Part shown: one piece after another, positions 28,880 to 32,833 of the stretch
How positions within the stretch are numbered: the first letter of the stretch is position 1
How the letters are laid out: every line of letters starts with the position of its first letter
DNA from: an uncultured delta proteobacterium
GTDB taxonomy: Bacteria > Myxococcota_A > Polyangia > Haliangiales > Haliangiaceae
Reading direction: 5' to 3'
Length of the DNA: 64,000 nucleotides
NCBI GenBank assembly: GCA_963848295.1
Contig: CAWKDB010000010.1
Coordinates: 1,568,001-1,632,000, forward strand
Translations under genes and position numbers: made by a program
Notes under the pieces: generated by a model
The model's database searches: none
What the model saw: the letters and a program-made list of their open reading frames with translations, nothing else
Told to the model about the DNA's origin: nothing

Positions 28880-29482
28880 ATGTGGCGAACCGGCAGCGCC
28901 TGGACCGACCGCGATGCACTCGCACGACAGTGGCGCGGCGCCCAGCCGTTTCCGCACCTGGTGTTCGATGACGTGTTGACCGAGCCAGCGCTCGCCGAGC
29001 TGTTCGCGATCCTCGACGAAGAATCGGTAGATCCGTACGAAGGCGACATCTTGTCGTTCGAGGCATCGCCGCCCGAGCCCCGCACCGCCGAGCTCCGCGC
29101 CGTGCGCGAGGCCTTCGCGGCCGCCTACGCCGCACCGCTCGCGGCGATCACCCACAAAGTGCTCGCGCGCGCCGACATGCGCGCGTTCGCGTATCGCATC
29201 GGCCACTACCTCCTGCCGCACACCGATCACCGCGACGGGCTGCACCGCGCGCTCGCGTACGCGTACTACCTGCCGTCGCCCGAGCCGCCGACCGGTGGCG
29301 AGCTCGAGCTGTTTCGCTGCTCGATCGCCGATGGCGAGCTCACGGAGACGACGTCGGCGCTGCTGATCGAACCGCGCGGCAATCGCCTGGTCGTGTTCGA
29401 GGTCAACGACGTGTCGTTGCACCAGGTCCGCGAGGTCACCGCCGGGCTGCGGATGTCGCTCGCCGGATGGTTCTATCCGTGA
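28880..29482 (+). CDS. 2OG-Fe(II) oxygenase, OGFOD1/Tpa1-like prolyl hydroxylase catalytic domain
   Basis: PFPH N-terminal motif, YLLPHTD (HxD), GGELELF, NRLVVFEV..SLHQVREV, RMSLAGWF. Confidence 0.85.
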   Translation: MWRTGSAWTDRDALARQWRGAQPFPHLVFDDVLTEPALAELFAILDEESVDPYEGDILSFEASPPEPRTAELRAVREAFAAAYAAPLAAITHKVLARADMRAFAYRIGHYLLPHTDHRDGLHRALAYAYYLPSPEPPTGGELELFRCSIADGELTETTSALLIEPRGNRLVVFEVNDVSLHQVREVTAGLRMSLAGWFYP

Positions 29483-29997
29483 CGCCGGCCGAGCAGCTCG
29501 CGAACGAAGGCGTCGCTCTCGTCGCCGACGCCGTCTCGGTCGCGCTCGCCGCCGCGGTTCGCGCTCGCCTCGCCTATCGCCGGTTCGCGTTGCTCGATCG
29601 CGGTAGCTACGAATTCGCCGAGCGCGTCGTCGAGCCCGAGCTGTTCGCGACGCTCGCCGCGATCGCCTCGCAAGCGACCGGGCGTACGCTCGCCGCGAGC
29701 GACGCGCGCGCCCTGCGTTTGCGCGCGGGCGACTATGTCCTCGCGCATCACGATCGGTTCTACGACGACCGGCCGATCGAGGCCGTGCTCGATCTGTCGC
29801 CGGCCGCCGTGCCACAGGCCGAGCTGCACTATCGCAGGCGCGGCCAGGTGTTCTTCCGGTTCCCGAGCGCGCCGCGGGCGCTCGCGCTCGTCGATCGCAC
29901 ACCGGTCGTGACCTGCAACCACGTCTACGTCAGCCGATCGGTCCCGACCGCGGACGTCATCCGACTCGTCGTCACGCTGCGGGCTACGACGTCGTAG
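29479..29997 (+). CDS. Second DSBH protein resembling the OGFOD1/Tpa1/Ofd1 C-terminal domain
   Basis: GTGA overlap with the upstream gene; RLRAGDYVLAHHD, RALALVDR..YVSR. Confidence 0.65.
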   Translation: MTPAEQLANEGVALVADAVSVALAAAVRARLAYRRFALLDRGSYEFAERVVEPELFATLAAIASQATGRTLAASDARALRLRAGDYVLAHHDRFYDDRPIEAVLDLSPAAVPQAELHYRRRGQVFFRFPSAPRALALVDRTPVVTCNHVYVSRSVPTADVIRLVVTLRATTS

Positions 29998-31198
29998 GCG
30001 CGTCGGGCTTCGCCGCCGCCGAGATCGGCAGCATGATCGTGACCGTCGTCCCGATCCCGACTTCGCTCTCGATGTGCAATCGCCCGCCGGCGGTACCGAC
30101 GAGACGCTGACACTGCGCGATCCCCAAGCCGGTGCCCTCGGTGCGGGTCGTGAAGAACGGCGTGCCGACCTTCGACAGCACCTCGGGCTTCATCCCGACG
30201 CCATCGTCCTTGATCCGGAACTCGAGCATGTTGTCGTCGTTGGCGTGTACCGCGATCGAGACGTGACCGTTGGTCTTGCCGCGCGCGGCGACCGCCTGCG
30301 CACCATTCGACAGGACGTTGATCAGGACCTGCGTCAGCTCGGTCGCGGGCATCGTGACGCGCGGCAGCTCGGTCGGCCCGATGTAATCCACCGACGCGCC
30401 TGCGCGAATCGAGATCTGCTGACACACCGCCATCGCGTGCCGCAAGATCGGTAGCGGATCGGTCATCGGCGTCGACTTCGGATCGCGCGGCCGGCTGAAC
30501 TCGCGCAGGTTCGAGATCATGTGGTTGAGGTGCTCGGCCGACGCCTTGAGGTCGGCCATGAGCGGATCGATGTCGCCGAGCGCGGTGATCAGCGCGTCGC
30601 GCTCCGCCGATTTCGGCTCGCCCGCGAGCAGCGCGCGATGGATCATCGGCGCGTTCTGCGTGAGCTCGTCGAGCAGCTCGAGGTTGACGAGCAGTGACAC
30701 GACCGGCTGCTTGAGGTCGTGGACGAGCATGCCGGAGATCGTGCCGAGCGTGACCAGGCGCTCGGTGTCGAGCAGCCGGCGTTGCAACGCCTCCGAATCG
30801 CGGCTGAACGTCCACGCGCCGATCGCCCAGCGCAGGACCTGGATCGACCTCGGTCCGCTCCCACGGCTTGACGATGTAGCGCGCGACCAGACCCTCGTTG
30901 ATCGCCCGCAGGATCGGCTCGACATCGGCGTACGCGGTGATCACCATCCGGATCGTCCGCGGGTACTTCTCTTTGACGATCGCGGAGCAGCTCCTCGCCA
31001 GACATCGTCGGCATCCTCATGTCGCTGACGATCACGGCGACGTCGCCCTCTTCGAGCGCGCGGAACGCCTCTTCAGGCGTCTCGCAGGTCAAGACCGTAA
31101 ACATGCTGCCGATCGACAGCTCGAACACCGTGCGGTTCGGCTTCTTCGTCGTCGACGTAAATGACGAGCGGGCTCGGGGGCGGATCGGCGGCGGGCAT
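29984..31198 (-). CDS. REC-HisKA-HATPase hybrid kinase, three +1 frameshifts (about 31145, 30981, 30845)
   Basis: Reassembled: VIYVDDE..VSDMRMP..MVITAY..KPW; LVHDLKQP; NVLSNGA; DDGVG; PFFTT; GTGLG. Confidence 0.8.
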
Positions 31199-31343
31199 GG
31201 ACGAGCCCCCCCAGCATACCGCGTCGGTCAGGCCGGGAGGAGCCCCCGGCCGCTAGCCGTCCACTGTGCGTGGTAACCGGACTCCAACACCTCCGGACCG
31301 AGGTCATGGTCGGACGAGGCGAGTTGGGCCATCATCGGCCGCG

Positions 31344-32048
31344 ATGACCGATGACGCCTGGCAACCACCCGCGCGTGGCGCACTCGACGACACCGCGTGG
31401 CCGGAGAAGCTCGTCGCGAGAGCGATCGAGCCCGGTTCCGATGACGACCGCCTGCATGGCTACGCCGTCGTGGGAGACCTCGCGAAGCACTACGAGCTGT
31501 CGGAGGTGCTCTACCTCGCGATCGTAGGCGAGCTGCCGAACGCGGCGCAGGCGAACCGGTTCCGAGTCGCGCTGATCAGCCTCGCCGCGATAGGGGTGAA
31601 CGAGGCACCGACCCATGTTGCGCTGCTCAGTCGAATCTGCGCCGGTGCGATCTCGTCCGCGCTCGGCGCCGGGCTTGTTGTCGCTGCCGATCAAGCGCGC
31701 TTCAAGCTCGAGGCCAACTGGCCGCTGTTCGCATGGTTGGCAAACCCGGTCGGGCCCCCGCCTGATGAGGTATGCAGCCGCGATCCCGACGACGCGCGCT
31801 GGGTTGTTACCTTGCGCCGCGCCGCCCCCGACAGCACGCTGGTTCATGATTCGCTATCGCGCGATGCCGCGCGCATCGCGCTGCTCTACGACGCCGGGCT
31901 GCGCGAGCCGGCGCAGATCGAGGCCGCGTTCGTAGCCTCGCGAGTCTGCGGCATCGCCGCCGAGGCCCTCCGCGCTGGTCCGAAGGACCTCGGTTCGTAT
32001 CCGGTCAAGCTACCACCGTTCCACTACGTCGAAGACGAGGTGGCGTAA
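31344..32048 (+). CDS. Divergent citrate-synthase/citryl-CoA-lyase-fold protein A
   Basis: RLHGYAVVGDLAKHYELSEVLYLAIVGELP matches the CS-fold N-terminus; C-terminal SRVCGIAAEA. Confidence 0.65.
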   Translation: MTDDAWQPPARGALDDTAWPEKLVARAIEPGSDDDRLHGYAVVGDLAKHYELSEVLYLAIVGELPNAAQANRFRVALISLAAIGVNEAPTHVALLSRICAGAISSALGAGLVVAADQARFKLEANWPLFAWLANPVGPPPDEVCSRDPDDARWVVTLRRAAPDSTLVHDSLSRDAARIALLYDAGLREPAQIEAAFVASRVCGIAAEALRAGPKDLGSYPVKLPPFHYVEDEVA

Positions 32049-32833
32049 TGATCGAGCTCGAGCCAATTGTCACACGCGTCGCCCATACCGGTGCCGACGA
32101 GCTCCGCTTCCAGGGACGCAAGGTCTTCGCCGAGCTGCTCGGCCACGCGTCGGTCGGGCAGATGCTCGTGCTTGGGATCAGCGGCAAGCTGCTCGATGCG
32201 GAGGCGATCGCGATCATCGACGACATCGTGACCGCGATGTCCTCGGCCGATCCGCGCATGTGGCCGTTCAAGTTGACCCGGCTCGGCGCGGCGCACGGGC
32301 TTGCATCACTCGGCACCTCGGTAAGTCTGATCGCCGCTGAGGGCGGAATGTTCGGCTCGAATCGGATGTTGGCCTCGACGACCTGGCTGCTCGACCTTCA
32401 CGGAGCCGTCGGCGCGGGACCGATCGAGAAGGCTGCGATCCTGGACGCCCTCGATCGCGATTCCCGCGGGTTCGGAGTCCTCTACCGCGCTCGTGACGAG
32501 CGATTCGAGGCCCTAGTACGACAGATCGTTCGACGCGGTCGTGCCGAGCGTCCCTTCACGGCGCTATGCCTGCGCGCAGTCGAGGTCGCTCGCACCGAGC
32601 GTAAGGTCGAACCACATGTGTTCCTCGTGGTCGCCGCGATCTGCCTCGACCTCGGCATCGCGCCCCACGCCATCGCCAGCGTCGCGACCTTGTTGCTGTT
32701 TCACGATTCGTTGGCAAACGCGGTCGAAGGTGCGCATCAGCACCCAACCTCCCTACAGTCGCTGCCTCGCCGATGCGTTGACTATGTAGGAGTTCCAACG
32801 CGCACGAGCGAGCGCGCGAACCGATCGAAATAG
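32048..32833 (+). CDS. Divergent citrate-synthase/citryl-CoA-lyase-fold protein B
   Basis: TAATG overlap; ADPRMWP, GFGVLYRARDER (compare GFGH..DPR), AAICLDLG, terminal YVG. Confidence 0.65.
   Translation: MIELEPIVTRVAHTGADELRFQGRKVFAELLGHASVGQMLVLGISGKLLDAEAIAIIDDIVTAMSSADPRMWPFKLTRLGAAHGLASLGTSVSLIAAEGGMFGSNRMLASTTWLLDLHGAVGAGPIEKAAILDALDRDSRGFGVLYRARDERFEALVRQIVRRGRAERPFTALCLRAVEVARTERKVEPHVFLVVAAICLDLGIAPHAIASVATLLLFHDSLANAVEGAHQHPTSLQSLPRRCVDYVGVPTRTSERANRSK

Follow-up and report, generated by a model that had tools for sequence, protein, structure and literature searches.

The two overlapping genes described here, real and conserved, are an unfused bacterial form within the OGFOD1 lineage, whose known members, human OGFOD1 (structures 4nhx and 4nhy), S. 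cerevisiae Tpa1 (3kt1, 3mgu and 4nhk) and S. pombe Ofd1 (C-terminal domain 6e0t), are prolyl 3- or 3,4-hydroxylases of the ribosomal protein uS12/Rps23. We consider it very likely that the products of gene 1 and gene 2 form a heterodimer of this lineage. That such an unfused heterodimer hydroxylates a protein proline, most plausibly the one in the PNSA loop of uS12, is a more tentative proposal, to which we give slightly less than an even chance.

Gene 1 is located on the forward strand at 28880..29482 of the window (the whole stretch of 64,000 nucleotides that was analysed) and encodes a catalytic Fe(II)/2-oxoglutarate oxygenase domain of 200 amino acids, of the OGFOD1/Tpa1 N-terminal type. 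Gene 2, at 29479..29997 on the same strand, encodes 172 amino acids from a GTG codon and corresponds to a second double-stranded beta-helix domain of the Ofd1/OGFOD1 C-terminal type, the predicted partner subunit. The TGA stop codon of gene 1 and the GTG start codon of gene 2 overlap in the sequence GTGA at 29479..29482 (+), which suggests translational coupling, and coupled translation would yield the two proteins in 1:1 amounts. A sequence-only reading of this DNA had described these two overlapping ORFs, and both were recovered, together with all the motifs it had quoted from them. The OGFOD1 motifs that it had cited match the 4nhx chain, except that the human protein has Ala and not Tyr before LLCHDD, and the NSLAL motif could be followed up to the end of the 4nhx alignment, the rest lying beyond it. 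The GC content at the third codon position is 0.87 in gene 1 and gene 2 alike, and the closest named loci, with 84% identity, belong to the Kofleriaceae (Myxococcota), which makes it very likely that the host is a member of this family. A DNA contig from run X1 crosses the junction of the two genes without differences, but it was left out of the evidence because it possibly comes from the source sample itself. Downstream, a histidine kinase ORF (29984-30925, minus strand) is convergent with gene 2 and overlaps its 3' end by 14 bases, an arrangement that is not conserved beside the pair elsewhere. Further along the window, at 31266-32833 (+), lie two overlapping ORFs of about 260 amino acids, the first with a weak citrate-synthase match (E = 1.8e-4) and the second without a Pfam match.

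The product of gene 1 matches the Pfam families 2OG-FeII_Oxy_3 (E = 3e-16) and 2OG-FeII_Oxy_4 (E = 1.3e-14), and a search of NCBIfam named neither gene 1 nor gene 2 above the cut-off. Two PDB sequences were found with gene 1 at E <= 1, human OGFOD1 (E = 2.3e-9) being the only strong match. With the predicted model (pLDDT 96.3), Foldseek returned Tpa1 and OGFOD1 at ranks 1 to 8, and VIA-align superposed 195 residues on OGFOD1 (4nhx, 24-239) with an rmsd of 2.1 A; the Z scores were 23.8 and 22.2 for OGFOD1/Tpa1, against 18.4 for the next family, PPHD. OGFOD1/Tpa1 came first by sequence, by Foldseek and by VIA-align, in agreement with the homology to the OGFOD1 catalytic domain that had been proposed for gene 1, and gene 1 did not group outright with generic bacterial 2-oxoglutarate oxygenases. 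When gene 1 was searched for in 401 Myxococcota genomes, 50 of them had a match at E <= 1e-5, with a gap after the first seven (E <= 3e-35), the rest starting from 1.8e-18. This gap and the VIA-align Z scores rule out that gene 1 is simply a generic bacterial oxygenase.

The catalytic residues of gene 1 are intact. The first two iron ligands, His114-x-Asp116 (29219..29227, +; H155 and D157 of OGFOD1), are present in 33/33 and 32/33 aligned relatives, respectively, and the third, His181 (29420..29422, +; OGFOD1 H218), in 33/33. The 2-oxoglutarate motif Arg191-x-Ser193, followed by Gly196-Trp197 (29450..29470, +; OGFOD1 R230, S232, G235 and W236), has Arg, Gly and Trp in all 33 relatives and Ser in 31, and together with Tyr130 the iron- and 2-oxoglutarate-binding residues are each kept in 31 to 33 of them. 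At the position of PHD2 Tyr310, where a Tyr is given as a feature of prolyl 4-hydroxylases in PMC4396695, the gene 1 family has a Leu (Leu111) in 33/33 sequences. The Pseudomonas EF-Tu prolyl 4-hydroxylase PPHD (4iw3, 4j25) and the PHD/EGL-9-type enzymes share the fold and the class of chemistry, and PPHD is a case of protein prolyl hydroxylation in bacteria; unlike gene 1, however, these enzymes carry the 4-hydroxylase Tyr and are single-domain proteins without a partner, in addition to their lower structural score.

The assignment of gene 2 is less direct. Its match to the Pfam family Ofd1_CTDD (PF10637) has an E value of 0.016 and 15.1 bits, below the cut-off of 27, and a genome search with PF10637 missed it. 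The sequence-only reading had made its interpretation dependent on a match to this profile; the match is real, although under the cut-off. Ofd1_CTDD is also the only recurrent Pfam match in the gene 2 family, which consists of 180 stand-alone proteins, including one from Labilithrix luteola (AKJ09_07263): among the 119 of them retained in the family alignment, 47 match it at E <= 0.1 (best 4.3e-5), whereas the next Pfam family is matched by 3. Searches of PDB sequences with gene 2, as a single sequence or as a profile, gave immunoglobulin and other chance matches only. The predicted model (pLDDT 95.1) has the same double-stranded beta-helix fold as gene 1. The Ofd1 C-terminal domain 6e0t ranked first in Foldseek (E = 9.9e-9), with ranks 1 to 4 occupied by the Ofd1 C-terminal domain and Tpa1, whereas VIA-align placed PPHD first (Z = 16.8), ahead of the C-terminal domains of Ofd1 and OGFOD1 (15.2). 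The region of OGFOD1 aligned with gene 2 was 281-542, i.e. its C-terminal domain.

A more specific character is a signature block at residues 135-152 of gene 2 (29881..29934, +), which comprises Arg140, a segment three residues longer than in catalytic domains, and Tyr150. Between strands VI and VII, the segment 138-151 is 13 residues long in every gene 2 protein compared (22/22), in 8/9 of the fused proteins and in 16/21 archaeal and 11/19 eukaryote-type C-terminal domains; of the 72 OGFOD1-type catalytic domains, 71 have 10 residues there. Similarly, Arg or Lys is found at position 140 in 22/22 gene 2 proteins, 17/21 archaeal and 14/19 eukaryote-type C-terminal domains and in none of the 72 catalytic domains, and the aromatic residue at 150, the acidic residue at 101 and the aromatic residue at 118 divide the two kinds of domain in the same way. 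In a quick tree built jointly from 61 rows, all 27 C-terminal domains, from split and fused Myxococcota, archaeal and eukaryote-type proteins, fell into one clade with an SH-aLRT of 100, while two independently degenerate copies grouped with their own catalytic neighbours. The Foldseek result, the joint tree and the shared insertion and residues all support the proposal that gene 2 is homologous to OGFOD1's second domain.

Gene 2 could instead be a degenerate duplicate of gene 1 that arose separately within the Myxococcota, its likeness to the eukaryotic two-domain layout being convergent. The gene 2 profile scores gene 1 (62.5) as high as the archaeal C-terminal domains (60.3), and the eukaryote-type ones lower (47.5); the topology with a separate duplication, although 17 log-likelihood units below the best tree, is not rejected by the AU test (p = 0.175), the trees being quick searches with long stem branches and uneven composition. 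An independent pair made up of a catalytic and a degenerate protein moreover exists in Myxococcota (L110 and L123). However, the insertion length, Arg140, Tyr150, acidic 101 and aromatic 118 are common to gene 2 and to the archaeal and eukaryote-type C-terminal domains, and none of the 72 catalytic domains has them, nor does either of the independent degenerate copies. The archaeal C-terminal-domain profile reaches up to 29 bits with outgroup oxygenases and gives 16 bits for gene 2 and a median of 21 for its family; nevertheless, 102 of the 119 family members score higher with it than with any catalytic-domain profile. The gene order is also identical to that of the archaeal pair. We regard a separate duplication as improbable and a common origin of gene 2 and the eukaryotic second domain as more likely. 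The independent pair itself (L110:1492-2683 and L123:1357-2603, both on the minus strand) is a second kind of two-gene 2-oxoglutarate oxygenase arrangement in Myxococcota, in which the degenerate gene lies upstream of its catalytic partner; in the joint tree it results from a duplication of its own, and it lacks the OGFOD1 C-terminal signatures.

The second domain of the eukaryotic enzymes has no metal triad, according to PMC6746446. In gene 2, the codons for His90, His91 and Asp92 (29746-29754) and for His148 (29920-29922) may correspond to a residual or regained metal site. His90, Asp92, His148 and Arg162 align with His114, Asp116, His181 and Arg191 of gene 1, and 82 of the 119 family members have the complete set, so that gene 2 might bind a metal of its own in this clade and perhaps form a second active or sensing site; the ligand-like assignment comes from the sequence, and the register of His148 depends on the alignment. 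Against this reading, His90 is replaced by Arg in 35/119 members, Asp105 (118/119) stands at the place of the 2-oxoglutarate-binding Tyr (OGFOD1 Tyr169), and the second domains of divergent split and fused forms are without histidines of the His90/His148 type. We consider a metal-binding gene 2 very unlikely. Because Asp105 occupies the place of the 2-oxoglutarate-binding Tyr, gene 2 is probably inactive itself.

When the two proteins were modelled together, the complex obtained a score of 0.80, compared to 0.00 for the best of three controls; the mark set for this score is reached by 116 of 157 solved pairs and by 2 of 215 mismatched pairs. The runs agreed in at least 92% of the contacts, with a partner pLDDT of 92. 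Since OGFOD1/Tpa1-like structures have already been solved, the score reflects likeness to them rather than binding as such. The predicted interface involves residues 56-59 (the hairpin), 107-115 and 180-187 (minor-sheet strands) of gene 1, and the invariant residues Asp40, Gly84, Tyr86, Arg119, Gly122 and Tyr150 of gene 2. PMC4396695 describes the two domains of OGFOD1 as packing through their minor sheets and the beta4-beta5 hairpin, and the packing predicted for gene 1 and gene 2 agrees with that description. The two-subunit reading proposed from the sequence is thus favoured by separate, co-occurring and adjacent genes and by the difference between the predicted complex and its controls. 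The working unit would be a 1:1 heterodimer in which gene 1 binds Fe(II), 2-oxoglutarate and O2 and carries out the chemistry, while gene 2 would brace the hairpin and the minor sheet of gene 1 that line the substrate groove.

To compare with the known systems, the bacterial pair and OGFOD1/Tpa1/Ofd1 share a catalytic domain with a second double-stranded beta-helix domain after it, the H-x-D...H and R-x-S motifs, the equivalents of Tyr169, Leu152, Arg162 and Gly-Trp, and the predicted minor-sheet and hairpin packing. The bacterial version differs in consisting of two polypeptides without a linker and with a much shorter second domain, in the altered equivalents of K91, Q100, D156 and L159, in the histidines at ligand-like positions of the second domain, and in a host uS12 without the docking extension. 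The pair probably works like OGFOD1, although it falls outside strict membership by its lack of a single-chain layout, its Pfam score and its groove residues.

The two genes occur together. In the 401 Myxococcota genomes, the seven that contain gene 2 are exactly the seven with gene 1 at E <= 3e-35; within the host family, gene 2 occurs in 73 of 138 genomes, two of them unpublished, and within a second family in 13 of 201. No match to the pair was obtained among 72,556 plasmids, and no RNA data set carrying it was listed. We examined 47 loci selected for their best gene 2 scores (9 found earlier and 38 of the 39 new ones from these two families; 3 of the 47 are duplicates). In 44 of them the genes are split and adjacent, in two they are fused, and in one the pair is interrupted inside gene 1. 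A frameshift or an assembly artefact is ruled out as the cause of the split because it recurs in 44 of the 47 loci, and ATGA or GTGA occurs at the stop of gene 1 in 44 of the 45 unfused loci, as scored at the stop and not by frame. Fused Myxococcota forms include L009, L010 and others, and further fused proteins of 360-420 amino acids, one of them labelled Myxococcales, were found among the relatives of gene 1; 'unfused' probably describes the pair better than 'split'. Longer forms were also sought with the gene 1 profile, but the one protein recovered among 8000 scored was an unrelated 1883-amino-acid match, so that this result says little on fusions. Two short fused forms (P0202, 359 amino acids, and P0221, 368 amino acids) have a highly reduced second domain without a Pfam match. 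An interrupted gene 1 or gene 2 was seen at locus L136 and in three genomes (G486, G487 and G518), which fits a dispensable module or assembly errors.

As for the substrate, uS12/Rps23 is given as Ofd1's sole known enzyme substrate in PMC5690285, and a 20-mer of the uS12 loop is a substrate for human OGFOD1 (PMC4396695). The PNSA motif anticipated in the host uS12 is indeed present, and the loop was found in all six pair carriers checked, with a sequence around the proline close to that of eukaryotes. The loop is reported to be conserved in E. coli uS12 and, to our knowledge, is general in bacteria, so that its presence does not discriminate, while the pair itself is patchy. The heterodimer would act on unassembled uS12, and it would likely hydroxylate a protein proline, most plausibly that of PNSA and possibly the same proline that is modified in eukaryotes. 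If the two proteins do form an OGFOD1-lineage heterodimer, we lean slightly towards uS12 as its substrate.

The residues lining the substrate groove leave room for another target. K91, Q100 and D156 of OGFOD1 are each present in 22/22 archaeal proteins and, as K/R, Q and D, in 18/20, 20/20 and 20/20 eukaryote-type ones, whereas their equivalents are replaced in the Myxococcota gene 1 family (Q in 1/33, D in 0/33). The equivalents of L152, R162 and W236 are fixed in the 33 aligned Myxococcota sequences, but those of L152 and R162 are also found in 10/11 and 11/11 outgroup oxygenases and hence are not diagnostic. Among the other positions, D140 is variable (14/33), L95 corresponds to Ile or Leu, Y96 is Tyr or Phe in 28/33 and Leu in this gene 1, and L159 aligns with an Arg of gene 1. 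The loss of the K91, Q100 and D156 equivalents favours the alternative that the same heterodimer was retargeted after its transfer into bacteria and hydroxylates a protein or peptide other than uS12. Ofd1 docks on residues 1-23 of Rps23, an extension (PMC5690285), and inspection of the host uS12 sequence showed that it lacks this N-terminal docking segment, which also favours a different target, as do the patchy spread over 7/401, 73/138 and 13/201 genomes and the surroundings of a second, paralogous pair, which adjoins genes for a B12 radical SAM enzyme, an O-methyltransferase and a PAAR protein. On the other hand, no conserved neighbour of the main pair names another substrate, the uS12 loop around the proline is near the eukaryotic sequence, and the changes in the groove could equally suit a bacterial loop. 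Retargeting is thus a substantial possibility, but one that we rate below uS12 hydroxylation, in which the altered groove residues would fit the bacterial loop. The paralogous pair is divergent and occurs in some host-family genomes (L186, L187 and L188, at L188:2913-8147); it lies in a shared cassette with the B12-binding radical SAM enzyme, the O-methyltransferase and the PAAR-motif gene, and this copy was possibly recruited to another function.

The main pair sits alone, like a housekeeping module. No conserved third gene or regulator was found beside it in 21 Myxococcota neighbourhoods, nor was the uS12 loop motif found in the ORFs of 80 archaeal loci; synteny therefore names no substrate. 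The neighbourhoods also speak against the suggestion that the pair senses oxygen and thereby controls a regulator, the part that Ofd1 plays for Sre1 (PMC5690285): apart from this precedent in the family and the histidine kinase gene that convergently adjoins the pair in the window, kinase neighbours occur in only 4 of the 21 neighbourhoods and no regulator is conserved, so that we regard a sensor role as highly improbable.

The relatives of gene 1 include AT-rich single-domain proteins, two of which are labelled by their source as archaeal (Ca. Pacearchaeota and 'archaeon'). Their loci contain genes for archaeal-type RadA, aIF-2alpha, EF-1beta, S15, L44e and S3ae (eight neighbours tested, most matches being under the cut-off). 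Of 369 metagenome loci, the best 80 were considered: in 67 of these, a complete gene for the C-terminal domain follows immediately downstream, mostly overlapping, and in 8 others part of one is cut off by the contig end. These unfused archaeal pairs (DPANN, one labelled Ca. Pacearchaeota) share with the bacterial pair the gene order and the C-terminal signature block; unlike it, they have the full eukaryotic groove, all four that were tested score above the Ofd1_CTDD cut-off, and they are closer to eukaryotes. The catalytic profile score to eukaryote-type domains, a label inferred from length and domain content and not from named taxa, is 451 for the archaeal and 288 for the Myxococcota proteins. 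Similarly, quick trees joined archaeal and eukaryote-type proteins with a support of 96 when a few unassigned rows were included and 86 without them, the Myxococcota falling outside. Because the unfused archaeal pairs are closer to eukaryotes, the Myxococcota pair is probably not the source of the eukaryotic enzyme. The relevance to its origin claimed by the sequence-only reading is thereby weakened, although a myxobacterial sister group of the eukaryotes is not rejected (AU p = 0.145). The fused Myxococcota proteins nest inside the unfused ones (98 within 93 in one quick tree, less cleanly in the other), which suggests that the Myxococcota fusion is separate from the eukaryotic one. The pair would have arisen once, stayed unfused in archaea and in most Myxococcota, and become fused in eukaryotes and, independently of them, in some Myxococcota.

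In PMC4396695, the OGFOD1 subfamily is stated to be restricted to eukaryotes and to be the sole 2-oxoglutarate oxygenases with tandem domains, and prokaryotic prolyl hydroxylases are called single-domain. Among the literature matches listed, none reports a bacterial OGFOD1; subscription papers, external data deposits and further supplements may bear on this. No match was found in the supplements of PMC12872458, PMC13468126 and PMC12872463 (except for one scanned file in two of them) or in the main text of PMC13734099. Data S3 of PMC12962969 contains an Asgard match to OGFOD1, in one protein over residues 5-225, and that row describes neither a pair nor bacteria. E. coli YcfD, an arginyl hydroxylase of uL16, is a bacterial ribosomal oxygenase with eukaryotic counterparts (PMC4396695) and thus a precedent for the role proposed here, although it belongs to a JmjC-related subfamily and modifies a different residue and ribosomal subunit.

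The wider proposal is that an unfused OGFOD1 of two subunits hydroxylates the uS12 proline at the decoding centre in a bacterial lineage, that this mark spans the three domains, and that an old prokaryotic pair was fused at least twice separately; taken as a whole it is plausible, but we give it somewhat less than an even chance. If it is true, archaea, bacteria and eukaryotes share an oxygen-dependent mark on the ribosome, and the eukaryotic tandem enzyme goes back to one among at least two separate fusions of this pair. With uS12 as the target, bacteria would have a modification at the decoding centre through which oxygen could tune fidelity; with another target, the pair would be a ribosomal oxygenase retargeted after crossing domains. 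The small two-subunit version is suited to co-expression in E. coli and makes it possible to probe what the non-catalytic domain does by omitting it, and the pair speaks against OGFOD1 as a myxobacterial gift to eukaryotes. Beside these pairs, some single-domain OGFOD1-type proteins (P0214, P0246 and P0255) form a clade of their own on a long branch, in which the P0214 cluster has 209 members, one of them from Tara.
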